Shown: piece by piece, positions 130-20,395 of the stretch
How positions within the stretch are numbered: the stretch's first letter is position 1
Layout: each line of letters opens with the position of its first letter
Assembly: GCA_022844165.1 (NCBI GenBank)
Contig: JALHMH010000003.1
Location: 32,001 to 96,000 of the forward strand
DNA length: 64,000 bases
Source of the DNA: Lysobacterales bacterium
Lineage (GTDB): Bacteria; Pseudomonadota; Gammaproteobacteria; Xanthomonadales; SZUA-5
Reading direction: 5' to 3'
Notes under the pieces: generated by a model
What the model was told of the DNA's origin: nothing
Databases searched by the model: none
The model's input: only the letters and a program-made list of their open reading frames with translations
Made by a program: the position numbers and the translations under genes

Positions 130-1239
130 GTGAACTATGTTGAAGTCCCGCCGCCCGATGGTCTGCGGCGCCAGGTGCAATGTGTGTGGCGACTGACCGC
201 TGCGAACGCAGCGATGCCAGTCCAGACCGTTTATCCGGATGGCCGTTGCGAATTGATTGTGCACCTCGGTCAGCCGATGAGTCGCTACCGACTCGATGAG
301 GGCTGGCGCGTGCAGTCGCATTGTTTGTTCGCAGCGCAAATGCGTTCGGCCATACGTTTGGCGGCCAACGGCGCGGTCGACTGTTTGGGCGTGCGCCTCA
401 CACCTGTCGCCAGTCGCGCGCTGCTGGAGGACGCGTTGCCAACGCTTGCCGACGAGATCATCGACCTGACGCAGACTCAGCCCACATTCGCGCAATCCTT
501 GATCGCCGCCTGTCGGGCGTACGCGATCGACAGCAACGCCACGCACCTATGGCAGTGCATCGAAGCCTTAGTCGTGCACATTGAGTTGGACGATCAGATC
601 GAGCAGATCGTCGCGGCCATCGATGCCGCCAGTGGCGACATCGCCATAGCCGAACTGGCAAAGGCCGGGCGGATGAGCTTGCGCAGCCTGCAGGCGCGTT
701 TTCTGCGCAGCGTGGGGCTCACGGCGAAAGAGTACGCACGCGTGCAGCGTTTGCAGGCCACGATTCGCCAACTCGACGGGCAGGCGCCATCGTTGGCACA
801 AATGGCGGCAGACGCTGGATTCGCCGACCAGGCGCACGCGACTCGCGAAGTGGTTCGTCTCACAGGGCTGACGCCGGGCAAGCTGCGCCGCGCGCTGCAA
901 GCCGAGCGCGACGGCGACGCAACGCGCGCATGGCCGCTGCGTTTGTGCGCGGGCATGCGCGCCAGGCGACTGCGGAAAACGCGCTTTCTGGCAGCGCAGT
1001 TCAGTCCTGATAATCCGGCACGAATGGTCGGCAATCAGCCCGATAGTGCGGGCGCCGTGAATAGCGCCCCTACGCTCGCCGAGTCCTGCAGGGGCACTCT
1101 TGCGGTCCGTCAGTTCGCCACACTCGCTGCTGCGGCACTCAACTCCGCTGGCGTTTTCTGTTCGCTCGAATGCACCTTGGCATCGATCAGCTCGGGCTGC
1201 AGCGGATTGCGCCACGGCGCATCGACGCTATCGCGATAG
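130..1239 (+). CDS. AraC-family transcriptional regulator (DUF6597-like N-domain plus HTH); 3' end probably frameshifted, likely natural stop at 1010
   Basis: PDGRCELIVH N-domain, SLRSLQARF and GFADQAHATRE AraC HTH motifs; GTG at 130 after GAGGG. Confidence 0.85.
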   Translation: MNYVEVPPPDGLRRQVQCVWRLTAANAAMPVQTVYPDGRCELIVHLGQPMSRYRLDEGWRVQSHCLFAAQMRSAIRLAANGAVDCLGVRLTPVASRALLEDALPTLADEIIDLTQTQPTFAQSLIAACRAYAIDSNATHLWQCIEALVVHIELDDQIEQIVAAIDAASGDIAIAELAKAGRMSLRSLQARFLRSVGLTAKEYARVQRLQATIRQLDGQAPSLAQMAADAGFADQAHATREVVRLTGLTPGKLRRALQAERDGDATRAWPLRLCAGMRARRLRKTRFLAAQFSPDNPARMVGNQPDSAGAVNSAPTLAESCRGTLAVRQFATLAAAALNSAGVFCSLECTLASISSGCSGLRHGASTLSR

Positions 1240-5498: not shown

Positions 5499-8111
5499 CT
5501 ATCGCGCCAGCGGAACGAGCTTGGTGAGTCCCGCAGCCTGCACTTGCGCCACTGCCAGCTGCCAGGCGCGCATCGCGTCGGCGCCATCGTCGTGAGCCAG
5601 CTCACCTTGCGCCTGCAGTGCGAGCAGCCGCAGCCCCTTCGCCTGCGCCTGGGCGGTGGCCCATTGCAGGCGTTCGCGGCGCGCGTTCTGGTTGCGATCG
5701 AGGCTGGCGCGCAGGAGCACCACGCGCAGCGCATCTTCGGCATCGGGTGCCTGGGCGAGAACGTGATCGACGGCGCTGAGCTCTGCTTCGGCCTCGTCGC
5801 GTCGGCCCTGAACGAGCAGCGTTTGAGCCAATAGTAGTTGTGCGTCGCGTTTGAGGGCTTGCGATTGTGCGGTTTCCGGGCGCTTGAGCAGTTCGCGCAG
5901 CTCTTCCTCGACCGCCACGCGCTCGTTCAACGCCAGGCGCGTGCGCAGTGCGTCGAGCTGCGCCTGACGGGCGGCGATCATCTCCTCGGCGTTCTGCAAG
6001 GCCTGCGCCTGCGCATCGAAGAGCGTCCGCGCATTCGGGAAATCGCCGCTGGTGAAGGCGATGGCGCCGGCCAGGCCGGCTTCTGCGGCCCGTGCCAGAG
6101 GTCCGGCATCACGCAAACCTTGGATGTCGACCAACTGCGCGCGTGCCCCTGCGAGATCGGCGAACTGCAGCCGCAAAAGGCCCAGCGTCGCGCGTGTCAT
6201 GGCTTCCTCTTTGCCGTTACCGACGCGCTTGAAGCCCTCTGCAGACTGCGCGGCGACATCGATCGCCTTGATCAAATCGCCGCGCGCGGCATGCACCCGC
6301 GCCAAACGCGACTGCGCATAGGCCTCGCCTGAAGGACTGTTCTGCGCCCTCTCCAGGACCACCGCCTGTTCGCTGTATTGCGCCGCTTCGTCCATACGTC
6401 CGCGCATCGCGGCGACTTCGCTCAAATTGCCCAACGCGGCCGCCTCGGCGCGCTTTTCGCCGCTGGCGCGAAAACTCTCCAGCGCGCGCATCAATTGGTC
6501 GTGTCCACGCTGCAAGTCGCCGCCGCGCACGTAGTGATTTCCCAGCGAGCCGTGCAGAAATCCGACGGTCGATAGCGCCTGGGCGCGGCTCGCCAGCTGC
6601 AGCGCGCGCTCAATCACCGCCGGTACTTCGCTGTTGCGGCCGAGCAGGTAGCGCGGTTCAACGGTGGAATTGAGCGCGTTGGCCGCGCCGCCGCCGTCGC
6701 CAATGGCTTCGTAATCGGCCGCCAATTGTGTGAAAGCGTCGATGGCGGCCGTGTGGTCGCCGCGGGCGGCGAACAGTTGCGCACGCAAGTGGCGCATGGT
6801 GATGACGCCGATCGGGTCGCGGCGGCCGTCGAGCAATTGTTGAATGCGCGCCAGGTGTTGCTCGGCAAGGTCGAGCTGGTCCTGTACGCGCGCGTTCCAT
6901 ACCGCGTCGCGCAGCGAGCGAACGGCGGGGCGGCTAAGGCCGAGCGTTTGCAGCGCTTCGCTGGCCCCGATGGCCAGCGCGGTCGCGCCGGGAGCGTCGC
7001 GCTGCAACTCCGCGGCACGCGCCAGTTCGCCCTTCGCAATTGCCGCCAGCGCCGGGTTGACGGCGCCGATTTGCGCAAGAAGGGACTGCGCGTGTTCGCG
7101 TTGCATGGCGCTATCGCGACGATCGCCAGCGATCTGCGCTGCCAGCAACAGGCGGCGCAAGGCCGGCACCGTGCCAGCGGACTCGAGTTCTGCCGCCAGC
7201 GCACGAAGGCGTTCGGCCGGGATCTTGCGGCGCAGATCCCAGGCGAGCAGCTTAAGGTCGAAGTCTTGCGGACGCAGCGCCAGCAGAGGATCGAGATTTG
7301 CCCAGGCTTCGATTTCGCGGCCCGCAGCTTGCGCCGCGACAGTATCGACCCACAAACGGCCGGGGCGATCGCCGGCGTCCAGATGCTCGCGCGCCACCGC
7401 GAGCGCGGTATCGATGCCGTCGCCATCGGCGCGCAGCATTGCGATCCGGGCTCGCAGCAACTGCGTTGCGACTTCATCTTGCGCCAATCCAGCGAGCGCG
7501 CGTTCCGCGGCGTCGATGCGGAATTCGTCGAAGGCAGTGTGCGCCGCGCGGTAGGCCGGATCGCTGCTGTAGGCGAAGGCATCCGCCGGCTGCGGCCACC
7601 AGGCATCGCGGAAGAACCAGAACACCAGCGCCTGCAGCAGCGCGACAAGCAGCAGCGCCGGGACAATCCAGCGCGCCAGCGGCGCTCGTGGCGCGCTCGC
7701 GGCGGTTTCGGATGCCTGCGGCGTCGGCTGCGCGACAGCCGATTCGACGTCAGTCTCCGTCGAAAGCGCGTTCGTGACGGCCTCGGGGGGCGATGCGGTC
7801 GCGATCGCTTCGACACTGGGTATCCAGCGATAACCCTGGCGATGGCGGGTTTCGATGTACGTCGACTCCTGCGCCTGATCGCCGAGCAGCCGCCGCAACT
7901 CGCGAATCGCCTGCGGCACCGCGCTCGGCGAAATTGCATGTCGCCCCCACACCGCATCGAGCAACTCGTCGGTGGACACCAGCGCCGGCGCGCGCGTCAG
8001 CAACACCAGCAGCGTCTGCGCCACCTGCTTGCGCAACGGTATGGCGCCGCTCGGGCCGTAAACGATGGCGGTGTCTACATCGAATTCGATGCCGCCCGAG
8101 CGATAGCGCAT
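5499..8111 (-). CDS. CadC/ToxR-like membrane-anchored regulator (OmpR-type winged helix, TM, periplasmic TPR repeats)
   Basis: DELLDAVWG...QAIRELRRLLGD...YIETRHRQGYRW wHTH, TM WIVPALLLVALLQALVFWFF, TPR helices (ALGNLSEV). Confidence 0.85.
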   Translation of the reverse strand: MRYRSGGIEFDVDTAIVYGPSGAIPLRKQVAQTLLVLLTRAPALVSTDELLDAVWGRHAISPSAVPQAIRELRRLLGDQAQESTYIETRHRQGYRWIPSVEAIATASPPEAVTNALSTETDVESAVAQPTPQASETAASAPRAPLARWIVPALLLVALLQALVFWFFRDAWWPQPADAFAYSSDPAYRAAHTAFDEFRIDAAERALAGLAQDEVATQLLRARIAMLRADGDGIDTALAVAREHLDAGDRPGRLWVDTVAAQAAGREIEAWANLDPLLALRPQDFDLKLLAWDLRRKIPAERLRALAAELESAGTVPALRRLLLAAQIAGDRRDSAMQREHAQSLLAQIGAVNPALAAIAKGELARAAELQRDAPGATALAIGASEALQTLGLSRPAVRSLRDAVWNARVQDQLDLAEQHLARIQQLLDGRRDPIGVITMRHLRAQLFAARGDHTAAIDAFTQLAADYEAIGDGGGAANALNSTVEPRYLLGRNSEVPAVIERALQLASRAQALSTVGFLHGSLGNHYVRGGDLQRGHDQLMRALESFRASGEKRAEAAALGNLSEVAAMRGRMDEAAQYSEQAVVLERAQNSPSGEAYAQSRLARVHAARGDLIKAIDVAAQSAEGFKRVGNGKEEAMTRATLGLLRLQFADLAGARAQLVDIQGLRDAGPLARAAEAGLAGAIAFTSGDFPNARTLFDAQAQALQNAEEMIAARQAQLDALRTRLALNERVAVEEELRELLKRPETAQSQALKRDAQLLLAQTLLVQGRRDEAEAELSAVDHVLAQAPDAEDALRVVLLRASLDRNQNARRERLQWATAQAQAKGLRLLALQAQGELAHDDGADAMRAWQLAVAQVQAAGLTKLVPLAR

Positions 8112-8311: not shown

Positions 8312-10189
8312 ATGAAAGCGGCATCGGAGACGAACGTCGAACTGCACCAACGTGCTCTGTTTATGGCGGCGCTTGCGCACGCCTTTCGAAGCCGCCTGAA
8401 CGCGGTTCTGGGCAGTTTGGAGTTGGTTCGTCAAACCGATCTCAATCGCGAGCAATCGGGTTTCGTGGCGACGGCTGTTGACGAGGGGCGCGAGTTGTTG
8501 ACGCTGCTTAACGATGCGCTCGACGTCAATCGCATTGAAGCCGGCGAGGTTCGTCTCGACGACTTGCCCACCGATCCGGTGGCCATTGCGGAGGGTGCTC
8601 TGGGTGCTGTGGCCGCAAGACTCCACGAACGCGGTGTGGCGGCAGCGAGCGTGATCGATCCGCAAACGCCAGTGACGCTACGCGGCGATCCGGCGCGGCT
8701 GCGTCAAGTGTTGACCAATCTTCTCGCGAATGCGGCGAATGCGACGGATCTGGGCAGCATCATGTTAAAACTGCGTCCGCTGGCTTCGGACGTACGTGGT
8801 GAGCATCTGCAGTTTGAGATCATCGATACCGGGCGTGGGGTGCCTGAAGGCTTAAGGGAGGGACTGTTCGCGCCTTTCGTTCCGCAGGGTGGCCGGGCGG
8901 ACTGGCGTTCGACGAGCCTGGGATTGGGTTTGGCCTTGTGCCGACACCTGGTTCGAATGATGGGCGGCGACATCGAATACGAAGCCCGTCGCGGCGGCGG
9001 CAGCATTTTTCGCTTCGACGTCTGGTTGCGCCGCGACGCCGAATTCGAGCGCCTGGCGGACGTTGTTGGCGAAGCCCACGATCGCCGCGTGTTGTTGGTT
9101 GACAGCGATCAGGTTCGACGGGTGAGCTTCGCCGAACAGGTGCGTCGCTGGGGAATCCGTGTAAAGGTCGTCGCAGACGGCGAAGCAGCGTCGGTGCTGA
9201 TTCGAAGCGGTCAACGCTTTGATTTGCTGTTGGTGCATCAAGACGCGAATGGCGCCGCCGATGCGGTGGCCTGCAGCGCGCCATTGCGGGTTTCGGTGCT
9301 GGTGCCCGTTGGCCAATCGCCCGCCCAGGCGTTGGTCCCGCGCGACCGATCCGTGAGCTGGCTGTCGGCACCGATGCGGCGGCGCGCATTCGTCGATGCG
9401 TTGATGGGTCGCCCGGTGCCACTGATCGATTCGCCCGACCTTCCCGAGGCGACGCGCAGCACTCGCGCCAGAATTCTGGTCGTCGAAGACAGCGATGCGA
9501 ATCGCCGTGTCATGAGCGCACAGCTGGAGCGTCTTTCCTGCGACGTGGACGCCGTTGCCAACGGATCCGATGCCATCCGCCAGGTGAGCCAGCGCCGTTA
9601 CGCGTTGGTCCTCACCGATCTGGCTTTGCCCGATATGAGTGGACTCGATGTCGCTGTTGGCATCCGGCAACTGGGTGGCGACGCGGCCCGCGTACCGATC
9701 GTTGCCGTCACAGGCGGCACCCATCCGCGCGATCGCGAACGCTGTCTTGCGGCCGGTATGAACGACTATCTCGCCAAACCTGTGGCACGCGATGACTTGC
9801 GCCGAGTGGTTGAACGCTTTGTACCGAGAGACGGCGCGGTGCCAGTTTGGTCCCCAGCGGCGGTCGCCGAGATGGCCAGCGACTTTGGTGCCGAACGCAC
9901 GTACGACCTGGTGGCAGCTTTCGCACGGGAACTGGCGCAGCGACTGGACCGCCTGGCGATCGGGACCAGCGCCCAGCAAATCGGCCATGAAGCGCACGCG
10001 CTCAAATCCGCCGCGTTGGTTTTCGGCGCCGAGTCCTTGGGAAAAGCGGCGCTGGCGCTGGAGCAAAATTGTCGCAACGGCCTGATGGCCGACGTGCAGC
10101 AAGAGACACAAGACGTCGTTGCGTTGGGCCGGCAGGTGTACGCTGCGGTCCAGTCGTGGCTGGTAGACCGATCGGAGCAGAACCCTTGA
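8312..10189 (+). CDS. Cytoplasmic hybrid histidine kinase (HisKA-HATPase-pseudoREC-REC-Hpt) with no sensor domain
   Basis: AHAFRSRLNAVLG, RLRQVLTNLLANA, DTGRG, GLGLAL; REC VVEDS/LTDL/AKP; Hpt AHALKSAA. Confidence 0.9.
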   Translation: MKAASETNVELHQRALFMAALAHAFRSRLNAVLGSLELVRQTDLNREQSGFVATAVDEGRELLTLLNDALDVNRIEAGEVRLDDLPTDPVAIAEGALGAVAARLHERGVAAASVIDPQTPVTLRGDPARLRQVLTNLLANAANATDLGSIMLKLRPLASDVRGEHLQFEIIDTGRGVPEGLREGLFAPFVPQGGRADWRSTSLGLGLALCRHLVRMMGGDIEYEARRGGGSIFRFDVWLRRDAEFERLADVVGEAHDRRVLLVDSDQVRRVSFAEQVRRWGIRVKVVADGEAASVLIRSGQRFDLLLVHQDANGAADAVACSAPLRVSVLVPVGQSPAQALVPRDRSVSWLSAPMRRRAFVDALMGRPVPLIDSPDLPEATRSTRARILVVEDSDANRRVMSAQLERLSCDVDAVANGSDAIRQVSQRRYALVLTDLALPDMSGLDVAVGIRQLGGDAARVPIVAVTGGTHPRDRERCLAAGMNDYLAKPVARDDLRRVVERFVPRDGAVPVWSPAAVAEMASDFGAERTYDLVAAFARELAQRLDRLAIGTSAQQIGHEAHALKSAALVFGAESLGKAALALEQNCRNGLMADVQQETQDVVALGRQVYAAVQSWLVDRSEQNP

Positions 10190-11589
10190 GCGAACGCATG
10201 CAGACTCTGCTGGCGCAGGCCAGCGTGCTGGTGGTGGAAGACAGCGAGAGTTTGCGCTCTTTGTACCTGGCGTATCTGCGCCAACAGCCTTGGCGCAGCA
10301 GCGGCGTGGGCAGCGCAATGGAGGCGGCGGCCGCAATCGAGGCCGACCCACCAACGCTGGTCCTGCTCGATTTGCAGCTCCCGGATGCCGATGAGCTGGA
10401 GTTTCTGCGACTGTTGCGATCCCAGGCGCCGCAGATCGGTGTGGTCGTCGCCACCGGTCACGGCAGCGTCGATCTGGCCGTCGACGCACTGCGGCTGGGC
10501 GCCAGCGACTTTCTCGAAAAGCCGGTCAACAAAGATCGCCTGATCCAGACTTTGCGTAATGCGCTCGAGCGGCTGGTGCTTGAACGACAAGTGACGCAGC
10601 TGTTGCAAACGGAACACCGCGAGCGCTTTCACGGATTCATCGGCCGCAGTCTGGCGATGCAAGCGGTGTACCGGACGATTGTTGCGGCGGCGCCCAGCCG
10701 GGCGACAGTCTTTATTACTGGCGAAAGTGGCACCGGCAAAGAAGTCACGGCACGTGCGATACACGCCGAAAGCCCGCGGCGGAGCGGCCCATTCGTCGCG
10801 CTCAACTGCGCGGCAATTCCTCGCGATCTGATGGAAAGCGAATTGTTCGGTCATCAAAAAGGGGCCTTCACCGGCGCTCAGCAGGCGCGCGAGGGTGCCG
10901 CCGAGCAGGCGGACGGCGGCACCCTGTTTCTCGACGAAATCGGCGAGATGAATCTGGAGCTGCAAAGCAAGCTGTTGCGCTTTCTGCAAACGGGCGAGGT
11001 CAAGCGTTTGGGCGCAAATCAGGAGCGCCGCGTGGATGTTCGTTTTTTGTGCGCAACCAATCGCGATCCCTGGGCCGAAGTGCAAGCCGGTCGTTTTCGC
11101 GAAGATCTGTACTTCCGCCTGCACGTGATCCCGCTGCATTTGCCGCCGCTGCGGGAACGCGAAGAGGACGTGGTGTTACTCGCCGAGGAGTTTCTGGCGC
11201 GTTTCGCCGCCGAAGAAGGTCGGCGCTTCAGCGGATTCAGCGCGGCCGCGCGGGAGGCATTGCTGCGCCACCCGTGGCCGGGCAACGTACGTGAACTGGA
11301 AAACGTCGTTCGCCAGGTCGTGGTCCTTAACAACGGGGGCGAAATCGATGCCGACCGGCTGTTGCTGGACTCGCGCCGCTGGTCGCGCGAGATGCAGCAA
11401 CCAGCGACGGCGCCGCTCGATGCCCAGCGAGCATCCGCTGGCCCCATCGAGCCGCTGGCGCTCACCGAACGCCGTGCCATCGAAAACGCCATCACACTTT
11501 GCCGCGGCAATGTTCCCGAGGCGGCGCGGCGACTTGAGGTTGCGCCTTCGACGTTGTATCGCAAACTTGCGCAATGGAGCGACGGTTGA
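10186..11589 (+). CDS. Sigma54-dependent response regulator, LuxO-like (REC-AAA+-Fis HTH)
   Basis: GESGTGKE, GAFTGA, WPGNVRELEN; LuxO-like GFIG linker, ATNRDPW and PSTLYRKLAQW; TTG start overlaps the kinase stop (alternative ATG 10198). Confidence 0.92.
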   Translation: MSERMQTLLAQASVLVVEDSESLRSLYLAYLRQQPWRSSGVGSAMEAAAAIEADPPTLVLLDLQLPDADELEFLRLLRSQAPQIGVVVATGHGSVDLAVDALRLGASDFLEKPVNKDRLIQTLRNALERLVLERQVTQLLQTEHRERFHGFIGRSLAMQAVYRTIVAAAPSRATVFITGESGTGKEVTARAIHAESPRRSGPFVALNCAAIPRDLMESELFGHQKGAFTGAQQAREGAAEQADGGTLFLDEIGEMNLELQSKLLRFLQTGEVKRLGANQERRVDVRFLCATNRDPWAEVQAGRFREDLYFRLHVIPLHLPPLREREEDVVLLAEEFLARFAAEEGRRFSGFSAAAREALLRHPWPGNVRELENVVRQVVVLNNGGEIDADRLLLDSRRWSREMQQPATAPLDAQRASAGPIEPLALTERRAIENAITLCRGNVPEAARRLEVAPSTLYRKLAQWSDG

Positions 11590-11596
11590 GCGCCAG

Positions 11597-12454
11597 TTAT
11601 TCGGCTGCTACTGTGAGCGTGAGCGTGTCTTCGTATCGCCCCGCAGCGCGCCGTTCCACCTCGCCGATCTGAATTTGCAGCTCGGCGCGCGACAGCGCAC
11701 CGCGACGATCCAACAACAGATTGGAGGCGCCGTTGATGCGGCGGCCATCGACGCTGAGCGCATAAGGAATGGTCCAGCCGCTGCGGTCGGGAATTCGCAG
11801 CTCGCCCCAGCGCTGTTCGATGCTGAGCTGAGCCGCGGCGTTGCCGCGGACCTCAACGGCCAGTCCATGAACGCTGCCGGTGCGCAATTCGCCCAGGTCG
11901 AAGTGGGTTTGCGTGCCGGCCAGGGGCGCACGCAATCCCGCCGCGACGATATCGACACTGAGAATGGCCGGCACCTGGACGGTCAGGTTCGTGTCCGCCT
12001 GTGCGAGCGGGCTAGCGATCAACGAGGCGCTATCGAACAAACGCCAGCGCAGGCGCAGGCGTGCCGGCCCCGCTTCGAAAGGCACGCCCTGAGCTGACCA
12101 TTGCAAGGTCGGCTGCAGCGTCGCGTTGCCTTGCGCGTCCGCGACCACCGGCAACAGCGCCAGCCCGCCACCCGGCACAAATCCGACCTCGGCACCATTG
12201 GGGCCAGTGCGGATGACTGCTGTTGAATCGGGATGGTCCAAAGGAGCGGCCTCCACGCCGAGCGACAGCGGTGGGCAACCCGTCATGCCGCTAATGCGCG
12301 CGCTCAACGTCTCTTGCAATCGCCCGCCTGCTGCAAGTTCAGCACCAAACCAGCTGGCAACCGGTTGATCTGCAGCGACTTGCAATCGCGGCTGACAAGT
12401 TGACGCGGTTTGCATGTTCAGCGCGGACAGCAGGGCGATCCATGCGGCATTCAT
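11597..12454 (-). CDS. Putative pilus tip adhesin/minor pilin (two-domain)
   Basis: Last gene of the pilus operon, signal peptide, pilin-type C-terminus AGRYEDTLTLTVAAE. Confidence 0.7.
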   Translation of the reverse strand: MNAAWIALLSALNMQTASTCQPRLQVAADQPVASWFGAELAAGGRLQETLSARISGMTGCPPLSLGVEAAPLDHPDSTAVIRTGPNGAEVGFVPGGGLALLPVVADAQGNATLQPTLQWSAQGVPFEAGPARLRLRWRLFDSASLIASPLAQADTNLTVQVPAILSVDIVAAGLRAPLAGTQTHFDLGELRTGSVHGLAVEVRGNAAAQLSIEQRWGELRIPDRSGWTIPYALSVDGRRINGASNLLLDRRGALSRAELQIQIGEVERRAAGRYEDTLTLTVAAE

Positions 12455-14844
12455 GGCGACAATGTTCCAAGGTCAATGGTGCCGCGCGCGTCCGCGGGTA
12501 TTTGCAGCAGGTGGCGGCGAACGGGCCGTGTTTGCAGCGTCAATTGCCAATCGCCTGCGATCAGTCCCTGCGCGCGCAATCGACCATCCCGCCCGACGAA
12601 TACCGGCATGGCGTCGCCGCCAGCCTGCGGTTGCAGCTGCCCGGCCACCATCGACAACGGCTCTCCGCTCGCATCGACGATTTGTAGCAAAAGCCCGATC
12701 GTCGGTCGACCACCGGCGGCGACCACAACGCCGCCCTTGTAACCAGGGCGAACCACCGGAAACAAATTGCCCGGATCGCGATCGGCAGGCAACTCAGGCA
12801 ACGACAGCGCCAGTGCCCGCGGCTCGTATGCGCGCAGGTTGGCCACCACCGCAGGCCCCGGCCCCAGACTGCTGGCGAGATAATCATCTTCCACCGGATT
12901 GACATAGACCGGCCCGGAGGCGCGCGAATCCCAGGGGTCGATGACGGCAAAACCACCCTGGACTTGTTCGGTCATCCCAAAGACGCCATCGGCGAATACC
13001 AGCGCTGTGCGGACTGCGAGCCGGGTATCGCGACTCGACGTTCCGTCCGGCGCCGACAATTGTGCGATCGCCAGATCGGCGCCAACGCGTTCGTGCCGCC
13101 AGCCGACGGCGCCATCACGAACTGCGCCGAGATCGCTGCGCGATTCGCCGAGGTTGGCGACGTATCCGCCGCGCTGGTTCTGCCGATTGAATTGCCATCG
13201 GGCACCATATCGCGAGAGCTCCGATTCTGCCTCGACTTGCAGCGCCTGCCGCGCCTCGTCGAACAACCAGTTGAAACTGACGTTGATTCGCCTGTCGACG
13301 GTGCCAGAAACATCCGCTTGCTCGATTCCGATCCGCAACCCCAGACCACGCCCGAAACGACTGGCCCACTGAGCGCTGAAAGCGTACTCGTTCGATGGAT
13401 CGCCTGACCATCGTGCGCGAGCACCAAGGGTCAACTGGTGGCGATCGCGTAGGGTCCGGCTGCTGCGCCACTGCGCTTGCAGCGTTCGGGCGCCTGGCGT
13501 TGAGGCACTCAGCAGCTCGGCGTAACCGGCCTGGCGCCATCCCAGCGCGCCCTCGTGTTGCCAACCCGGCATGGCGTCGGCACCATCGGTCAGACGCCAG
13601 CGCAGATCGGCGCGGCAGCCCTGCGCGTCGGCATGGGCACACGCCACAGCCGCGCCCGTCAGCCACCGTCCCCACGCCTGAGTCAGGCTGATCTCAAGGC
13701 TGTGCTGCTGAAGTTCTGGAATGCTTGCCACGCCAAGTCCCAATGTTGTGCGCGGACCCAGGCCGCGGCCGTAATCGGCAGCGAGTACCCAAGGCCGGAC
13801 GATCGCGTTGTCGAGCAATGCCGGCAAGGCCATCTGCCCGACGCTGATGCTCTGCCGCACGCGACCGGCATGGAGCAACGCGAGATCTACGAAAGCCTCA
13901 ATGAACCGACTCTGGGTGCGCCCCGCCGCATCCGTGATGCGCAGCTCAGCGGCATTCGGGCCGAACCCCAGCGGAAAATCGGAAAGCCGATAGCGCCCGG
14001 CCGGCAAGTCGTAACTCTGCACAATCCGCCCATTGACCAACACCTCCACCTGCGCCGGTTGTTGCAGTTCCAGCGGCGCATCGAGATTCGGCGCAAAACT
14101 TTCGTTTGGCGCAAGCTCGAACGAGGTACCCACACTCAACCCGCGCAAGGCAGGCAAAAAAAGCCCCCCTGCGCGCGCCTCCGACAGATCGCCCAGACGC
14201 CAGCGACGCAGTTCATCTGGGCGGTCGTAGACCAGGGAGCGAAGCCCCGGAAGGCAGCGCCCCTCAGTGCACAAACCATCGAACTCCAGGGTCTTGCCGA
14301 ACGCGCGTACCGCGCCATCGAAACCCAAACCGCGATCCTCAAAACGCCCGGCATCCTGCGAACTGCGACGTACGGCAGCACTGAGATTCAGATAGGCCGA
14401 GACCGCTGCGTCGCCAGCCACCGTCGTGGCCGCCTGGCGGGGACGCAACTGCAAACTTTGGACGCGCCTCAGGCTCGGTTCGATACTTGCGAAGACGAGC
14501 AGCATTCCTGGGTCGTAGCGCAGGGCGATGCCACATCGTTGCGCCAAGGCCAGCGGGTTCTCGTGTGGCGGCTGCAAACAGTCGAGCGCCGATTGCTCCA
14601 GCACATCGGCCAGGCGATCCCGCAGCTGGCTGAGATTGACGCCGATCAGCCGATGGCCCTTGACCTTGACCTCGACAGGATCGAGGCGTTGTCCATTCAA
14701 ATCCAGGTCCGCGGACAACGCTTGCTCCCGCTCCGCACGTTTCCCGAACACCTGTTCGCGCAAAGACTCGTTAGTCGTCTGCGCCGCGAGGCCGGTGCAA
14801 ACCGCCAGGAAAATGACAGCAACAAGCGTCTGGTTGAGGGACAT
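12451..14844 (-). CDS. Fimbrial outer-membrane usher
   Basis: ~800 aa; RRWRLGDL, LRGLSVG, QVEVLVNG...LPAGRYRLSDFPLGFG usher motifs; alternative TTG start at 14880. Confidence 0.88.
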   Translation of the reverse strand: MSLNQTLVAVIFLAVCTGLAAQTTNESLREQVFGKRAEREQALSADLDLNGQRLDPVEVKVKGHRLIGVNLSQLRDRLADVLEQSALDCLQPPHENPLALAQRCGIALRYDPGMLLVFASIEPSLRRVQSLQLRPRQAATTVAGDAAVSAYLNLSAAVRRSSQDAGRFEDRGLGFDGAVRAFGKTLEFDGLCTEGRCLPGLRSLVYDRPDELRRWRLGDLSEARAGGLFLPALRGLSVGTSFELAPNESFAPNLDAPLELQQPAQVEVLVNGRIVQSYDLPAGRYRLSDFPLGFGPNAAELRITDAAGRTQSRFIEAFVDLALLHAGRVRQSISVGQMALPALLDNAIVRPWVLAADYGRGLGPRTTLGLGVASIPELQQHSLEISLTQAWGRWLTGAAVACAHADAQGCRADLRWRLTDGADAMPGWQHEGALGWRQAGYAELLSASTPGARTLQAQWRSSRTLRDRHQLTLGARARWSGDPSNEYAFSAQWASRFGRGLGLRIGIEQADVSGTVDRRINVSFNWLFDEARQALQVEAESELSRYGARWQFNRQNQRGGYVANLGESRSDLGAVRDGAVGWRHERVGADLAIAQLSAPDGTSSRDTRLAVRTALVFADGVFGMTEQVQGGFAVIDPWDSRASGPVYVNPVEDDYLASSLGPGPAVVANLRAYEPRALALSLPELPADRDPGNLFPVVRPGYKGGVVVAAGGRPTIGLLLQIVDASGEPLSMVAGQLQPQAGGDAMPVFVGRDGRLRAQGLIAGDWQLTLQTRPVRRHLLQIPADARGTIDLGTLSP

Positions 14845-14876
14845 GCCTGATCCTGGTCGGTGCTGCGCACCTCTGA

Positions 14877-15599
14877 TCAATCGCCCGGTGGCAACCGCAA
14901 TTCGATCGCCAGCGGTCCGCCATCGAGCGCTTCGCTCCAGGGGACCCTGAGCTCACGCTCGGCGCCTGCAAGAACATTCTTGCCATGCACTGCCTCGCGC
15001 TGCTCGGCGTTGAATTCGAGAACGCGCTCGCCAGCGCTGATAACGAACATTGGCGCTTGCACGATCGCATGCGCGTTGCCGTCGTTCTTCAAACGTACCA
15101 GCGCGTAGCGAGTGTCGGCGGCCTCTTCCCGGCTGATCTGTGCACTGACCCGCGCGTCGGGCTCCGCGGGCCGCACATACAATGCCGCAAGGTATTTGAC
15201 CATCAGGCGCAAGCCACTGCGCTCCGCGCCGTCGCCAAGATCGATGGGCAGTTGTTCGGCCATGAGCCGATAGGCGATTTCCGTTGCTGGCTGTTCGCTG
15301 CCGGTCCATTGCACACGCACGCTCTGCGTTTCGCCGGGCTGCAGAACAATTTGATCCGGATAGATGTTGAAGTCGTCCGGTGCTGCTGTCAGCACATCGC
15401 TGCCATCGATGGCCATGTTGCGACGATGCACGGACAACTCGATCGCTGCCGGCAAAGCGCCGCCGTTCTCGACCTTGAACGTTTGTACGGCCAGGCGGGA
15501 GGGCCCGAATTCCGCCTCAATCGGCGTGAGTTTGAACGCATGGGCCGGAAGAGCTGCCGCCAATACGACCAGGCTTAGGTAGCGGATGAGCGAAGTCAT
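14877..15599 (-). CDS. Fimbrial assembly chaperone (PapD-like)
   Basis: Signal peptide, YPDQIVLQPGETQSVRV, AYRLMAEQLP, LKNDGNAH; GGAGG RBS before ATG 15599. Confidence 0.88.
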   Translation of the reverse strand: MTSLIRYLSLVVLAAALPAHAFKLTPIEAEFGPSRLAVQTFKVENGGALPAAIELSVHRRNMAIDGSDVLTAAPDDFNIYPDQIVLQPGETQSVRVQWTGSEQPATEIAYRLMAEQLPIDLGDGAERSGLRLMVKYLAALYVRPAEPDARVSAQISREEAADTRYALVRLKNDGNAHAIVQAPMFVISAGERVLEFNAEQREAVHGKNVLAGAERELRVPWSEALDGGPLAIELRLPPGD

Positions 15600-15619
15600 A
15601 GAGTTCCTCCAAGAGCTGA

Positions 15620-15680
15620 GCCCGGCGTTGCCGGGCAAGGTTAGGATCGCTCGACGCGGCCGGCAATGGGCGCCGGCCGC
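15620..15680 (-). terminator. Two GC-rich hairpins after the major pilin gene (mRNA stabiliser or partial terminator)
   Basis: GCCCGGC-gtt-GCCGGGC (15620-15636) and GCGGCCGGC-aatgggc-GCCGGCCGC (15656-15680). Confidence 0.5.
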
Positions 15681-15694
15681 ATCATTCGTGGTCA

Positions 15695-16162
15695 TCAGCT
15701 GGCAGCGATGGTGACCGTTACGGTGTCGCTGTAGCTGCCGGCCGGCAATTGGTCCTGACCGTCGACATTCACCGTCAACTCGTAGGCAGCGTTCCACTGC
15801 GGATCGGGGCGCGGGAGCAATGCGTCTGCGGCGAGGCTGTGGTTGCCGATCGAATCGTAGTTGATGCGATACGCGCTCTCTGCATCGCGTGGTCCAATCA
15901 TCTTGCCGCCGCGGTCGCTGGTGAAACTGACCGAGTAGCCATCCGGATCGTTGCAGGTTTCCGTGACCTTGCCGACCGCACGGTTGGTTTCGCCGGTCAC
16001 CAGATCCAGGTTGGTGCCGTAGTCGACAACACCAATCTCGCACAGGTCGCCGACGGTGCCTTTGATGATGATCTGACCGCTGGTCGAGCTGGCTGCGAAT
16101 GCCGAGTTGCCGAACGCCAGTGCGGCGACCAAAGCGGAAGCGGAGAGAAGACGTGTGTTCAT
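15695..16162 (-). CDS. Major pilin subunit (chaperone-usher)
   Basis: AAGGAG RBS, signal peptide MNTRLLSASALVAALAFGNSAFA, two Cys, C-terminal AGSYSDTVTVTIAAS. Confidence 0.85.
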   Translation of the reverse strand: MNTRLLSASALVAALAFGNSAFAASSTSGQIIIKGTVGDLCEIGVVDYGTNLDLVTGETNRAVGKVTETCNDPDGYSVSFTSDRGGKMIGPRDAESAYRINYDSIGNHSLAADALLPRPDPQWNAAYELTVNVDGQDQLPAGSYSDTVTVTIAAS

Positions 16163-16219
16163 GGTAAAGCTCCTTAGTGAGGTTGTTTGGGCCCCGGTGG
16201 ATCCGGGCACGGACCTCTT

Positions 16220-16236
16220 ATCAAATCGCGTGCCAA
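16220..16236 (-). promoter_or_regulatory. Sigma54 (-24/-12) promoter of the pilus operon
   Basis: TTGGCACGCGATTTGAT: TGGCAC-N5-TTGA, correct GG-N10 spacing, with A instead of C at -12. Confidence 0.7.
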
Positions 16237-16251
16237 CCTTCTGACATCGCA

Positions 16252-16264
16252 TAAAATATTGATA
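16252..16264 (-). promoter_or_regulatory. IHF binding site
   Basis: TATCAATATTTTA matches WATCAANNNNTTR; lies in an AT-rich patch between enhancer and sigma54 promoter. Confidence 0.65.
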
Positions 16265-16321
16265 TATAAGCACTTTTTTCGAAAATCCTCGAACCGCCTT
16301 CTCCCGAAAACGCCGCAGTCA

Positions 16322-16355
16322 TTGCAAAATGCAAAACGCGCGACGCAGATTGCGA
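16322..16355. promoter_or_regulatory. Tandem LuxO-type enhancer boxes
   Basis: TTGCAAAATGCAA (16322-16334, equals TTGCA-W3-TGCAA) and degenerate ACGCAGATTGCGA (16343-16355), 21 bp apart. Confidence 0.7.
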
Positions 16356-16396
16356 AGCGGCGATACACTGGTTACCCCAACGCGCAGGAGACCGCT

Positions 16397-17518
16397 ATGT
16401 CGATGGATCGCCGCTCATTTCTTTGGACCAGCGCTGCGCTCGCCGCGATGGCGTCCAGCCGCGCCGAGGCGGCCATGGGCAAGGGCCTGGCCGAACACGC
16501 GCAGCGGGCGGATGGCTCGTATGCCGTTGTGGATCTGAAAAAGCCGGTGATCACGCTCGGTGTGGTGCAGTCGCGAATCAAAGCGATCGATGCGGCGAAG
16601 AATCGGCATGCCAAAGAAATGCGCGCCAATCTCGATCACATGTTGAGCTTGATCGACGCCGCGTTCTATTACGGTGCGCCACCCGATGTGCTGTTCTTCC
16701 ACGAATTCCCGCTGTCCGGCTGGAAGAAATGGACTCGCGAGGAAATTCTGCGTTTTGCGATCGAAATTCCAGGGCCGCAGACCGAGGAGATCGCGAAGAA
16801 AGCCAAACAATATGGTTGTTACATCGTATTCGGCGCCTACGCCCAGGACGCCGCCTGGAAGAACCATGTGCTGAGCATCACCACGATCATCGGGCCCGAT
16901 GGCAATATCGTCGACAAACACTGGAAAGCGCGCAACATCAAGGGTGTGTTCCCAGGCTTCGAACTGTTCACGACCACGATTTACGATGTGCTCGATCAGT
17001 ACATCGAAATGTATGGCGTCGATGCGGTGATCCCGGTCACGCGCACGCCGCTCGGGAACTTTGCAACCAGTTCCGTGCAGCGCGAACCGGAGCTGTTCCG
17101 GGCGATGGCGCTCAAGGGCGCAGAGATCATGTTGCGCACGGCATCGGGCGGATTCACGCCGCTCGATATCCAGGCCACGAGCCTCTACAACGATGTGTAC
17201 ACGGCCATCGTCAACAACGCCGCCTCACCCGGCAACTGGCCGTTTTTCGAAGATTCCGGCAGCGGTGGCACGGCGGTGTATGGGCCAGACAGCAAGGCCA
17301 TCGCGGAAGCGAACGGCAAGCTGGAGCAGCTGGTGACAGCGCGTATCCCGATGGCCGAGTTTCGCGCCCGCCACCGCCAGCCGATCGTGCACTGGGAGAT
17401 GTTTGCGCCGGTGTTCGCCGGCTATCGAAGCAAGTACGGGCCAAATTTGTTTAGTGACTACCAACCGACGGATTTGCTCGATGCCGCACGTCATCTTAAA
17501 GATAAATCGCGCTGGTAA
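16397..17518 (+). CDS. Tat-exported nitrilase/carbon-nitrogen hydrolase-fold protein
   Basis: DRRSFL twin-Arg signal; FFHEFP, KHWK, EPELFRAMALKGAEIML; CAGGAG RBS. Confidence 0.8.
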   Translation: MSMDRRSFLWTSAALAAMASSRAEAAMGKGLAEHAQRADGSYAVVDLKKPVITLGVVQSRIKAIDAAKNRHAKEMRANLDHMLSLIDAAFYYGAPPDVLFFHEFPLSGWKKWTREEILRFAIEIPGPQTEEIAKKAKQYGCYIVFGAYAQDAAWKNHVLSITTIIGPDGNIVDKHWKARNIKGVFPGFELFTTTIYDVLDQYIEMYGVDAVIPVTRTPLGNFATSSVQREPELFRAMALKGAEIMLRTASGGFTPLDIQATSLYNDVYTAIVNNAASPGNWPFFEDSGSGGTAVYGPDSKAIAEANGKLEQLVTARIPMAEFRARHRQPIVHWEMFAPVFAGYRSKYGPNLFSDYQPTDLLDAARHLKDKSRW

Positions 17519-17575: not shown

Positions 17576-20395
17576 ATGCGTCCCATCTGGCCATTGATTG
17601 CGGTGTTTTCTGCGCCCTTGTTGGCATCGGCGCAGTCACTGGAAACCGACCGCGCGATCGCCGAAATGCTGCGCGAAAAAACCTCGCGATCGAGCGCAGA
17701 TCTGGTGCAAACCACTGACCCGGACGGCGGCGTGTCGCTCAATCTGGGGCCCGGGTTCAAACACGTTTATCTGGCGCGGCTGGATCAAAACGGACTGCAG
17801 GCCAGTTGTGTCGCCAGTGTGCCGGAGGCCAACCAGTTTTTTGGCCGCAATCTGGAGACCGGCAAGAAGCTGCCGCGGTATCTGCCGCCGGCGCCGACGG
17901 CCGATGCCCAAGCCGCGCAATTGCACGGTCTGACGCTCGAGCAATATCAGTTTTACTGGAACTTGATCGAGCAGGCCAAGGTCGACAAGGCGGCCAAAGC
18001 CGTGAGCATTTCGATCCAGAACAACGATGGCCCCGGCGAGGGATTCAACGACAACACGCTCGTTTCGCCTGAGGGTGGAAACAACGGCGCAACGCGCGGT
18101 CAGCAGCGACTGAACGTGTTCGACGAGGCCGCGTCGATCTGGGAGGCGTTTTTGGATAGCAACGTGCCGATTGTGGTCGCTGCCACTTTCGATTCCTTTC
18201 CGGGTCAATGTGGTCCGGGTGGCGGGGTGCTTGGTTTTGCTGGCGCCACCACATTGCACCGCGATTTCCCGAACGCCGAGGTGCCTGGTACATGGTATTT
18301 CCAGGCGCTGGCCAACAAAATGCGACGCAGCGATAACAGTGCGGCACAGCCCGATATCGTGTCGGCATTCAATAGTGATATCGACACCGGATGTCTGGGC
18401 GGTGGGTCGCGGTTCTATTACGGGCTGGACAACGCAACGCCGGCCAATCGCATCAATCTGCTGGTCACCGTGCTGCACGAAATCGGCCACGGTGTCGGCT
18501 CAGCGAGCGCAACCGACGAAAGCACCGGCGCATTCCCTGGCAGTCCACCGTTCCCGGATATTTGGGCGCGCTTTCAGTTCGACACAGACGCCAATCAGTT
18601 GTGGGCCGCGATGACGCCCGGCCAGCGTGTCACGTCAGCAATCAACAGCAACGATTTGGTGTGGAACGGCCCGAGCACCCGAATCGCTTCGGGATTCTTG
18701 GTGGCCGGGCGTGAAGCCGATGGCAGCGTTCAGCTGTTCACCCCGAATCCGGTGCAACCCGGATCGTCGGTCTCGCACTGGAATGACGTAGCGTCGCCGA
18801 ATCTGCTGATGGAACCCGCCATCAACCCGGGCCTGCCGCTGACGCTGGATTTAACGCGCCAACAGATGCGCGACATCGGCTGGTTCCGCGATACCAATAC
18901 TGCCGACAGCACACGCGACAGCATCACCGGCGTTACACCAACCAATGGCACCAGTGTGACGCCGGGTAGCAACGTCAACATCAGCTGGACGAATGTCGGT
19001 GGCTTCAATCGCAACGTGACCATCGAGTTGTCCACGGATGCCGGACTGACGTTCCCCACGACCATCGCCAGCAATGTGGCGAACAGCGGATCGCGCAGCT
19101 GGATCGTTCCCAGCAGCCCCACGGCGACGGCACGAATTCGCGTCCGCGAGCACGATTTTGCTGCTCCATCGGGCGTTTCCAGCGAGAATTTCACCATCGG
19201 CACCGCCAACAGTGCGCCGACATTCACGCCGGGCAGCGCCATTACGCGCGTGCAGGGAAGTGCACCTGGCGCAGCGGTCACGATCGGCACGATCACTGAT
19301 CCGGAATCGTCGGTTGGCAGTTTGACCGTGACGGCCGTGTCTGGCGGCACGGCGAGCGGTTTGACGGTGACGAACATCAATAACCCGGGATCGGGCTCGG
19401 TCAGCGCCAATATCGCCGCGTCCTGCACGGCCGGTCCTGGCACACAGCGATTTCGGGTTTCGGATGGATCGTTGAACGACGAGGGCGACTTACAGGTCAA
19501 CATCACGTCGAACCCGCTGCCAACGTTGAGCTATAGCAACCAGACGGTCAACGGTGGTTCACCGCTGAACGTCAATCCCACGATGGGGCCGAGCGACAAC
19601 GGCAGTGTCGCGTCAGTTGCGGTGCAAAGCGTTGGCACCTACACCGGCACGATCAGTGTGAACGCGGCGGGCGTGATTGCGTTGAGCAACACCGCGCCGG
19701 TGGGGGCGCACACCATCACCATCCGCGCAACAGACAACTGCGGCGCCATTCGCAACGCGAGTTTTACGCTCACCGTGAATAACACCGCACCCAATTTCGT
19801 CCCTGCTGGCAGCATCACACGACAGGAAGGCAGCCCGGCTGGCCCAGCGGTGGTGATTGGGGCCGTCAGCGATCCGCAGCAAAGTGCCGGTTCCTTGCTG
19901 GTCAGCGCGGTCGCCGGTGGCACGGCGACCAACATCAATGTCGGTGCGATCGTCAACAATGCAGGTGCCATCAGTGCGCCGCTCGCAGCGGCGTGCGGCG
20001 CCGCTGTTGGTGTCCGCACCCAGCGTTTCCAGGTCTCCGATGGCAACTTGGCGAATACTGGGGACCTTGCCCTGAATGTCCTCGCCAATGAAGCGCCGAT
20101 TCTTTCGGCCTGGCCGAATGCACAGGTTGCGAATGGCGGCAGCGCCAATGTAACCCCCGCAGCCGCCCCAACCGACAATGGCTCGATTGTCTCAGCGACA
20201 GCATCGGCCAACCCAGGTTCGTTTACTGGAACGCTGAACGTCAATCCCAGCAGCGGCGTTGTGGGTGTGGTCAACGCCGGACCCGATGGCGTTTATGTCG
20301 TGACGGTGCAAGTCACCGACAACTGCGGATCGGCCAACACCACCAGTTTCAATCTCACTGTGGGCGACGGCGTGTTCGCCAACGGCTTCGAATAG
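17576..20395 (+). CDS. Secreted zinc metalloprotease with Ig-like repeats and C-terminal GDGVFANGFE motif
   Basis: Signal peptide, propeptide-like region, LHEIGHGVG, GSSVSHW...LLMEP, duplicated beta-sandwich pairs. Confidence 0.85.
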   Translation: MRPIWPLIAVFSAPLLASAQSLETDRAIAEMLREKTSRSSADLVQTTDPDGGVSLNLGPGFKHVYLARLDQNGLQASCVASVPEANQFFGRNLETGKKLPRYLPPAPTADAQAAQLHGLTLEQYQFYWNLIEQAKVDKAAKAVSISIQNNDGPGEGFNDNTLVSPEGGNNGATRGQQRLNVFDEAASIWEAFLDSNVPIVVAATFDSFPGQCGPGGGVLGFAGATTLHRDFPNAEVPGTWYFQALANKMRRSDNSAAQPDIVSAFNSDIDTGCLGGGSRFYYGLDNATPANRINLLVTVLHEIGHGVGSASATDESTGAFPGSPPFPDIWARFQFDTDANQLWAAMTPGQRVTSAINSNDLVWNGPSTRIASGFLVAGREADGSVQLFTPNPVQPGSSVSHWNDVASPNLLMEPAINPGLPLTLDLTRQQMRDIGWFRDTNTADSTRDSITGVTPTNGTSVTPGSNVNISWTNVGGFNRNVTIELSTDAGLTFPTTIASNVANSGSRSWIVPSSPTATARIRVREHDFAAPSGVSSENFTIGTANSAPTFTPGSAITRVQGSAPGAAVTIGTITDPESSVGSLTVTAVSGGTASGLTVTNINNPGSGSVSANIAASCTAGPGTQRFRVSDGSLNDEGDLQVNITSNPLPTLSYSNQTVNGGSPLNVNPTMGPSDNGSVASVAVQSVGTYTGTISVNAAGVIALSNTAPVGAHTITIRATDNCGAIRNASFTLTVNNTAPNFVPAGSITRQEGSPAGPAVVIGAVSDPQQSAGSLLVSAVAGGTATNINVGAIVNNAGAISAPLAAACGAAVGVRTQRFQVSDGNLANTGDLALNVLANEAPILSAWPNAQVANGGSANVTPAAAPTDNGSIVSATASANPGSFTGTLNVNPSSGVVGVVNAGPDGVYVVTVQVTDNCGSANTTSFNLTVGDGVFANGFE
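19205..20360 (+). repeat. Internal tandem duplication of a two-domain unit in the metalloprotease (boundaries approximate)
   Basis: APTFTPGSAITRVQGS..QRFRVSDG..PSDNGSV..TDNCG repeats as APNFVPAGSITRQEGS..QRFQVSDG..PTDNGSI..TDNCG. Confidence 0.75.

Follow-up and report, generated by a model that had tools for sequence, protein, structure and literature searches.

LuxO/SypG-type activator and hybrid kinase as the probable switch of an archaic chaperone-usher pilus operon in a freshwater Lysobacterales bacterium

We examined a stretch of 64,000 nucleotides (the window) from contig JALHMH010000003.1 of a freshwater Lysobacterales bacterium (assembly GCA_022844165.1; genome of 4.68 Mb in 59 contigs), whose family in the genome taxonomy also holds a metagenome-assembled genome (MAG) labelled Rhodanobacteraceae at NCBI. 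Two convergent units meet in its 8.3-16.4 kb portion: on the plus strand, genes for a hybrid histidine kinase and for a sigma-54 activator, that is, a bacterial enhancer-binding protein (bEBP), and on the minus strand a four-gene pilus operon that ends 8 nt from the activator stop codon. We consider it probable that together they form a phosphorelay switch that is dedicated to this locus and controls an archaic chaperone-usher pilus. The evidence lies in the identities of the genes, the family and motifs of the activator, the conservation of the promoter, its uniqueness in the genome and its match to the geometry of a qrr1 promoter. An earlier note on this DNA, made from the letters alone, had described the same gene content and the coupling of the activator to a hybrid kinase with a fused Hpt, and we recovered both by Pfam scan and open reading frames; the start codon of the activator overlaps the stop codon of the kinase (ATGA), pointing to translational coupling.

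Upstream of the pilin gene the elements collected in Table 1 stand in the order that the earlier note had given, namely, towards the pilin, the distal box, the proximal box, the site resembling that of integration host factor (IHF) and TGGCACGCGATTTGA; the ribosome-binding site and the ATG at 16162 follow, the start codon lying 46 nt past the promoter. As a yardstick we used a locus of Photobacterium chitinilyticum (L037) with uvrB, a Qrr gene (87 bits by Rfam), luxO (881.5 bits) and, where luxU would stand, an Hpt gene of 119 aa. The proximal box, which reads TTGCATTTTGCAA towards the pilin, is the identical 13-mer found in the Photobacterium qrr1 promoter, where it is centred at about -117, and the distance from the box centre to the GG of the sigma-54 element is 94 nt in the window and 92 nt in qrr1 (GG of TGGCACGATGCCTGCA). 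We placed transcription starts 12 nt beyond the C at -12, and since this rule, applied to Photobacterium qrr1, reproduces exactly the 5' end that Rfam gives for Qrr, we predict that the pilin mRNA starts at about 16209. The window genome has rpoN, and a simple scan found no sigma-70-like promoter facing the pilin. A site of the TTGCAWWWTGCAA type is present, conserved and correctly placed, and binding of the activator to it is predicted on these grounds.

Conservation of the box and synteny of the cassette, which the earlier note had proposed to look for, were both found in related genomes. The activator of genome G016 is 77% identical to that of the window, and the whole kinase-activator-pilus cassette is kept there in the same arrangement (locus L008); upstream of its pilin the boxes TCGCATTCTGCAA and TCGCATTCTGCGA keep the 21-bp spacing and are followed by an AT-rich block with CAATA..TT and by a fully canonical TGGCACGCTCCCTGCA. 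In genome G001, from the same genus as the window genome, the operon has 90% nucleotide identity to that of the window and BLAST similarity ends at the -24 element; the diverged DNA upstream carries TCGCAAACCGCGT and TCGCATTTTGCAA, again 21 bp apart, an IHF-like AATCAATAACTTG and a sigma-54-like TGGCACGCTACTTGA. A three-way alignment of these regions left as invariant blocks the two boxes, the CAATA..TT core, GTTGGCACGC and the ribosome-binding site. Since the gene beyond the intergenic region differs in each of the three genomes, the promoter elements travel with the pilin gene.

Taken singly, the promoter elements are unremarkable. There are three exact boxes in the window genome, the same number as in a reversed control, and the IHF pattern has two matches in the window against 0.67 expected. 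Their combination is more than chance: only one of 154 relaxed sigma-54-like motifs in the genome, that of the pilin promoter, has a box (with one mismatch at most) 50-220 nt upstream. We also looked in 399 order genomes for a box followed, after 70-100 nt, by TGGCAY-N5-YTG; this composite pattern gave 16 sites in 13 genomes, and its reversed control gave none. Six of the 399 genomes carry a LuxO-clade protein, defined by a protein match at E ≤ 1e-140, and three of these six account for six of the sites (one in the window genome, G000, one in G016 and four in G154). The pilin promoter is the only predicted target of the activator in the window genome.

The activator groups with LuxO and not with NtrC or AtoC, in agreement with the earlier note. 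Its best match among 18,950 NCBIfam models is Vibrio LuxO (NF041946) at 572.5 bits, followed at a distance by NtrC (407) and AtoC (381); its best PDB match is LuxO 5ep0 (435 bits, with NtrC1 at 340), and it shares 51% identity with Photobacterium LuxO over the full length. Two quick maximum-likelihood trees were built, one of 95 rows and a repeat of 45 rows, with support from the Shimodaira-Hasegawa-like approximate likelihood ratio test (SH-aLRT). References in the larger tree were E. coli NtrC, AtoC, ZraR and GlrR, 13 distant bEBPs, 10 Vibrionaceae LuxO proteins and 10 copies of a second Vibrionaceae paralogue, which is present in 15 of the 41 genomes searched. A LuxO/SypG superclade of 78 rows is set off in this tree by a long branch (1.02; support 100), with all four E. 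coli references outside it. Within the superclade the activator belongs to a subclade of 11 rows (99), which also holds its orthologues from G003 and G016 as well as relatives from metagenomes, and this subclade lies outside both the Vibrionaceae LuxO clade (100) and the second-paralogue, SypG-like clade. The 45-row tree returned the activator's own subclade at 98, LuxO at 100, the second paralogue at 99 and the superclade at 100, and the branch joining the remaining superclade members against the activator's subclade fell to 83; the order in which the subclades branch has weak support in these two quick trees (83 to 97).

Because it misses the 800-bit equivalog cut-off of the LuxO model, which Photobacterium LuxO passes at 881.5 bits, and because it falls in a separate subclade, the activator is best classed as a member of the LuxO/SypG superclade and not as an orthologue of LuxO; on the same model its orthologues reach 587 bits (G003) and 584 bits (G016). 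What had been called a LuxO module outside the Vibrionaceae is therefore one at the level of the superclade, and the orthology that the name implies has to be given up. Nor is a place outside that family special, since LuxO-clade proteins of 50-60% identity occur in many Alpha- and Gammaproteobacteria. A protein-cluster search gave 27 close homologue clusters of the activator (P0002-P0028), no protein of more than 54% identity came up when metagenomes were scanned for close relatives, and literature searches on LuxO homologues outside the Vibrionaceae found nothing informative.

The signature residues tell the same story as the trees. Acceptor D62, the Walker motifs, GAFTGA and the Fis-type helix-turn-helix are intact in the activator, and all six motifs that the earlier note quoted as LuxO-like beyond the generic bEBP set are present. 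GFIG, MQAVYR, CATNRDPW, RLHVIP and (S/A)PST(I/L)YRK are superclade-specific, being absent from the four E. coli proteins and from the consensus of the 13-bEBP outgroup, whereas PPLRER and the VVL motif are generic among bEBPs and carry no such weight. The recognition helix, APSTLYRKL, fits the superclade consensus. The critical DNA-binding residues of V. cholerae LuxO are G409, N410, I411, L418, V420, S423, I425, Y426, R427, K428 and L429 (PMC11407668); by alignment, nine of these eleven are identical in the activator and the other two are changed from I to V and from I to L (GNVPEAARRLEVAPSTLYRKL). Linker Gly141 of V. angustum LuxO plugs the ATP site (PMC4878744) and aligns with the first glycine of GFIG (G150 in the activator), while the equivalents of LuxO G329 and Q363, residues taken from the same paper, are Ala and Glu. 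An AlphaFold model of the activator has confident domains in an uncertain packing (mean pLDDT 90, pTM 0.60). Its AAA+ domain superposes on LuxO-C at 1.4-1.5 A; a single long helix spans residues 116-143, and the packing of the receiver fits neither 5ep0 (LuxO) nor 1ny5 (NtrC1), with a root mean square deviation of about 17 A at that pTM.

The kinase begins at its HisKA domain and cannot start further upstream, since a stop precedes 8312 with no other start codon between the two; a Pfam scan of its 625 aa found no sensor, ligand-binding or membrane domain. Its orthologue in G003 (65% identical) is equally short, and an alignment to a SypF-like kinase begins at residue 241 of the latter. A pseudo-receiver with His at the acceptor position lies before the true receiver and is kept in G003. 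Input to the kinase could enter via this pseudo-receiver or from another kinase.

By its Pfam matches, the operon encodes an archaic (SCPU/Csu-type) chaperone-usher pilus, with the usher slightly below its cut-off (E 7e-6, 25.6 bits against 27.1). For the chaperone, usher and pilin a sequence search of the PDB gave no real match, the pilus proteins being too diverged. The 285-aa subunit had no Pfam match even at E 5, but its orthologues follow the usher in G001, G016, G243 and G091 and its C-terminal motif AGxYxDTLTLTV resembles the C-terminus of the pilin; a two-domain tip subunit or adhesin is its probable role. Between the pilin and chaperone genes the RNA is predicted to fold into a stem-loop (-48.4 kcal/mol, z -4.05, with 0 of 200 shuffles as stable), which is likely a partial terminator or processing site. 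Contig C9 of G091 (L238, 5354 nt) carries one and the same pilin gene, 67% identical to that of the window, at both of its ends, with chaperone, usher and tip subunit in between; the arrangement is tandem or circular, or else an artefact of assembly.

The mechanism that we propose runs as follows. The soluble hybrid kinase would pass phosphate from H23 to the Asp of its receiver, then to the Hpt His and on to D62 of the activator. Once phosphorylated, the activator would assemble on two boxes of the TTGCA-N3-TGCAA type, at about -119 and -140, IHF would bend the DNA at about -49, and the AAA+ ring would open the sigma-54 promoter, from which pilin mRNA would start near 16209. The stem-loop after the pilin gene would let fewer transcripts reach the chaperone, usher and tip-subunit genes. 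We infer from sequence the binding of the boxes by the activator, the direction of phosphate flow and the dependence on RpoN and IHF.

Several observations weigh against this mechanism, and those from comparative genomics are best considered together with the alternative that the adjacency is incidental, the palindromes at the sigma-54 pilin promoter being read by another enhancer-binding protein or factor and the kinase-activator pair controlling something else. We found no kinase or activator gene in the assembly of G001 (99% complete), where the operon, boxes and promoter are kept. The pair is present in G003 (84% complete), and there neither the pilus operon nor a composite site was found; the place of the operon is taken by a 618-aa YadA-type trimeric autotransporter adhesin, convergent with the activator (L007:7622-9478), and by eye neither a LuxO box nor a -24/-12 element can be made out upstream of that adhesin. 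Of the 393 order genomes without a LuxO-clade protein, 10 have composite sites, ten in all, about 4 being expected by chance from a base-composition estimate. G243 has a more distant relative of the pilus operon (chaperone 42% identical) with a canonical TGGCATGGAATATGCA (L237:9638-9653) some 240 nt ahead of the chaperone gene; no pilin gene lies between promoter and chaperone, and neither a LuxO box nor, within about 10 kb, a bEBP is present. We nevertheless judge incidental adjacency to be rather unlikely: the window genome offers the pair no other composite site, the DNA-reading residues match those of LuxO and the box is the LuxO site, G016 keeps the cassette in synteny, and the number of composite sites per genome is about 40 times higher in LuxO-clade carriers. 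Moreover, the assembly of G001 breaks just at the junction where the pair would be expected, the contig ending 110 nt beyond the operon inside a repeat of at least 40 copies, so that the pair may be lost or merely unassembled in this genome. As an observation in its own right, this 110-nt element (L175:1-110, at the start of contig C31), which stands in the place of the kinase-activator pair, has copies of 95-100% identity, often at contig ends, and resembles a miniature inverted-repeat transposable element or the end of an insertion sequence.

Searches for the activator detected it in only 3 of 39 relatives and, within the family, in 3 of 25 genomes; the chaperone came up in 6 of the 399 order genomes. 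When the pilus proteins were compared by tblastn with 80 LuxO-clade genome loci plus L007 and L008, they matched in L008 only. Since pair and operon are both rare, they are suggested to form an accessory, mobile cassette.

A second alternative, which we hold to be somewhat less likely again, is that the module is decaying or negative, with a kinase that cannot autophosphorylate, an activator locked off or acting as a DNA-bound repressor, and a pilus that is normally silent. Two of the points on which it draws, the H-box and the -12 element, also count against our mechanism. The H-box of the kinase, HAFRSRLN, has no acidic residue after the phospho-His (H-A in place of H-E/D), and the lack of such a residue may impair autophosphorylation; the first receiver has His for the acceptor Asp. 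The -12 dinucleotide is GA in the window (GG-N10-GA) and in G001, not the consensus GC, the canonical GG-N10-GC being found only in G016. In G016 the pilin, usher and kinase genes are each split over two frames by tblastn (L008 at about 5335, 7260 and 12711-12753), which may reflect a decaying cassette or indel errors of the assembly. Against decay, the odd H-box and the pseudo-receiver are both kept in G003 at 65% overall identity, arguing for function, the ATP-binding boxes of the kinase and the acceptor Asp, Walker motifs and GAFTGA of the activator are intact, and contigs from RNA libraries cover the pilin gene in four runs.

These metatranscriptome contigs (from at least two studies) are 88-97% alike to the pilin gene. 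Contigs of three of the runs end at 16194-16204, just inside the predicted start, and none cover the DNA upstream of 16346; we take the agreement with the predicted pilin start as a weak hint, tempered by the facts that the contigs come from relatives and that the end of a contig is no proof of a 5' end. A contig of 549 nt covers 15649-16196, reaching just past the pilin stem-loop, and is likewise weak. We rejected RNA contig pieces on 10906-10950 and 11265-11309 as signs of activator expression, as they represent conserved bEBP motifs of other organisms. A stretch without RNA cover is no evidence of silence.

The earlier note had expected an output other than Qrr. Searches for Qrr (RF00378) gave no match in G000, G001, G003 or G016, while the same search found the gene in Photobacterium (G399) at 87.4 bits, and no family was matched in an Rfam scan of the window. 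A genuine quorum-sensing LuxO circuit, in which autoinducer receptors would act through a LuxU-like Hpt and LuxO on a Qrr-type RNA and the pilus would be secondary, could claim LuxO as the best NCBIfam and PDB match and a box with the sequence and position seen in the qrr1 promoter, but is highly improbable given the activator's score below the LuxO cut-off, its place outside the Vibrionaceae LuxO clade, the lack of a Qrr match in these genomes, a kinase without ligand-binding or membrane domain and a pilin start codon so close behind the promoter.

Table 1. Features of the kinase-activator pair, the pilin promoter and the pilus operon (window positions unless kinase residues are stated).
Feature	Position	Strand	Basis or remark
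Hybrid histidine kinase, 625 aa	8312-10189	+	Pfam HisKA, HATPase, REC, Hpt
HisKA	kinase residues 14-78		Pfam
HATPase	kinase residues 125-239		Pfam
Degenerate receiver	kinase residues ~254-364		Weak receiver match for 245-385; His at acceptor Asp position
REC	kinase residues 388-500		Pfam
Hpt	kinase residues 533-600		Pfam
Sigma-54 activator (bEBP), 467 aa	10186-11589	+	Pfam REC, Sigma54_activat, HTH_8
Terminal secreted subunit (probable), 285 aa	11597-12454	-	Position, size, signal peptide; no Pfam family
Outer-membrane usher, 809 aa	12451-14880	-	Pfam Usher 25.6 bits, position, size
PapD-like periplasmic chaperone, 241 aa	14877-15602	-	Pfam PapD_N 32.6 bits (cut-off 23)
Stem-loops between pilin and chaperone genes	15603-15700	-	Main stem ~15656-15680, RNA fold
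Major pilin, 155 aa, Spore Coat Protein U (SCPU) domain	15695-16162	-	Pfam SCPU 25.1 bits (cut-off 22.4)
Sigma-54 -24/-12 element TGGCACGCGATTTGA	16221-16235	-	Predicted start ~16209
IHF-like site TATCAATATTTTA	16252-16264	-	Fits WATCAANNNNTTR; centre ~-49
Proximal LuxO-type box TTGCAAAATGCAA	16322-16334		Exact match; centre ~-119
Distal degenerate box TCGCAATCTGCGT	16343-16355	minus-strand reading	Centre ~-140; 21 bp centre to centre from proximal box

Three neighbouring genes were noted. The divergent neighbour at 16394-17518 encodes a carbon-nitrogen hydrolase that bears a twin-arginine-type signal (MSMDRRSFLW...) and for which a periplasmic location is predicted, unusual for this family. 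At 17576-20395 lies a gene for a 939-aa secreted protein with a HEIGH zinc-protease-like motif and repeated Ig-like domains, which is not conserved in the related loci, and at 5499-8111 one for an 870-aa regulator with winged-helix (Trans_reg_C) and TPR parts. We considered this regulator and the hydrolase as parts of the system and dropped both, neither being conserved in the related loci.

We scanned 48 sources (the window, three close loci and 44 LuxO-clade loci) for comparable promoters. In ten of them a sigma-54 motif is preceded, at a distance of 40-260 nt, by a LuxO-type box, and what lies downstream is protein-coding except at Photobacterium qrr1. Promoters of this kind, heading surface or polysaccharide genes, adjoin LuxO-clade genes at L020, L023, L029, L036, L090 and in G154; in an Oceanospirillaceae genome they precede both an Hpt-luxO operon and a response regulator, and in Arenicella, Kangiellaceae and one metagenome contig they precede probable polysaccharide genes, as read from the translations. 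In a Marinomonas MAG (L036, about 9272-9440) four LuxO-like boxes and a sigma-54-type promoter stand before a gene for a 415-aa lipoprotein, beside a deep-branching LuxO-clade gene. The four composite promoters of G154 are at L240, L243, L244 and L245, and one of them, 6.6 kb from the LuxO-clade gene, precedes a STAS-domain-like gene (read from its translation). A STAS-domain gene also heads the syp locus, with SypA as the parallel, and the G154 promoters may form a syp-like regulon outside the Vibrionaceae. Direct control of surface-structure genes looks like a common habit of the LuxO/SypG superclade.

LuxO is among the best-studied bacterial signal integrators, and to our knowledge it has hardly been described other than as the Qrr RNA activator of vibrios, with SypG as its single studied relative. 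The window offers a compact and testable case of a distant family member that keeps the DNA-reading residues and the site of LuxO and would drive a pilus operon. Together with the polysaccharide-linked sites it suggests a role for the family outside vibrios and a way in which the quorum-sensing circuit may have arisen. As far as our searches show, this is the first proposal of sigma-54/bEBP control for a Csu-type archaic chaperone-usher pilus, and such pili matter for biofilm formation on abiotic surfaces. We put forward more tentatively, as an idea that could well prove wrong, that the code of paired box, bend site and sigma-54 promoter is an ancient principle of the whole superclade across the Proteobacteria and no invention of Vibrio quorum sensing. 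Its usual job would then be the direct activation of adjacent adhesion or matrix loci, the Qrr output of the Vibrionaceae would be a late derivative, and the cassette in the window, with its sensorless relay kinase, activator and promoter, would be a minimal form.

Compared with LuxO-LuxU-Qrr, the system in the window shares the clade motifs (including GFIG) and the 51% identity of its activator, the DNA-binding residues, the same 13-bp site at the same distance and an Hpt step. It differs in that Hpt is fused to the kinase encoded upstream, whereas luxU of Photobacterium is a separate gene directly after luxO, and in that its target is protein-coding, with no autoinducer receptor or Qrr found here. 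With the archaic pili (Acinetobacter Csu, Pseudomonas CupE and Myxococcus spore coat protein U) it has in common an SCPU pilin, a PapD-like chaperone, an usher and a larger terminal subunit in one operon. Csu is controlled by BfmRS and CupE by PprAB, neither of which is known to be a sigma-54 activator. Literature searches found no paper joining LuxO with chaperone-usher systems, as judged by title or the start of the abstract; a search for SCPU with RpoN returned only a paper that is unrelated by its title, and one for sigma-54, enhancer-binding protein, fimbriae and usher returned only work on FleQ.

The closest working analogue is SypF-SypG of V. fischeri and not quorum sensing. There, a hybrid kinase with Hpt and a LuxO-like activator drive adjacent surface-structure genes from sigma-54 promoters, the enhancer overlaps the LuxO motif and the published SypG motif is TTCTCANNNTGMDWN (PMC10162802). 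The window follows this scheme, a HisKA-HATPase-REC-Hpt kinase lying directly upstream of a superclade activator and beside surface-structure genes, and the same layout is seen at a second-paralogue locus of the Vibrionaceae (L228), with a Wza-like exporter, a HisKA-HATPase-REC-Hpt kinase, the activator and three glycosyltransferases. The novelty that the earlier note had seen in a LuxO-like activator and hybrid kinase-Hpt driving adjacent surface genes is therefore forestalled by SypF-SypG (PMC10162802). Its idea of a LuxO-type relay wired to the pilus promoter survives as a mechanism, on computational evidence of site, geometry and conservation, and yields on identity and novelty, since the activator is no LuxO orthologue and SypF-SypG came before. 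The differences from SypF-SypG are nonetheless clear: a single promoter and a chaperone-usher pilus stand here against a polysaccharide locus with several promoters, the window kinase lacks the sensor part of about 240 residues that SypF has and bears an extra pseudo-receiver, the activator belongs to a different subclade (the SypG-like group has SH-aLRT 99), and the window boxes fit the LuxO consensus rather than the SypG motif. What is new here is the archaic chaperone-usher pilus as output, the separate subclade, the reuse of the exact LuxO site geometry and the sensorless kinase.

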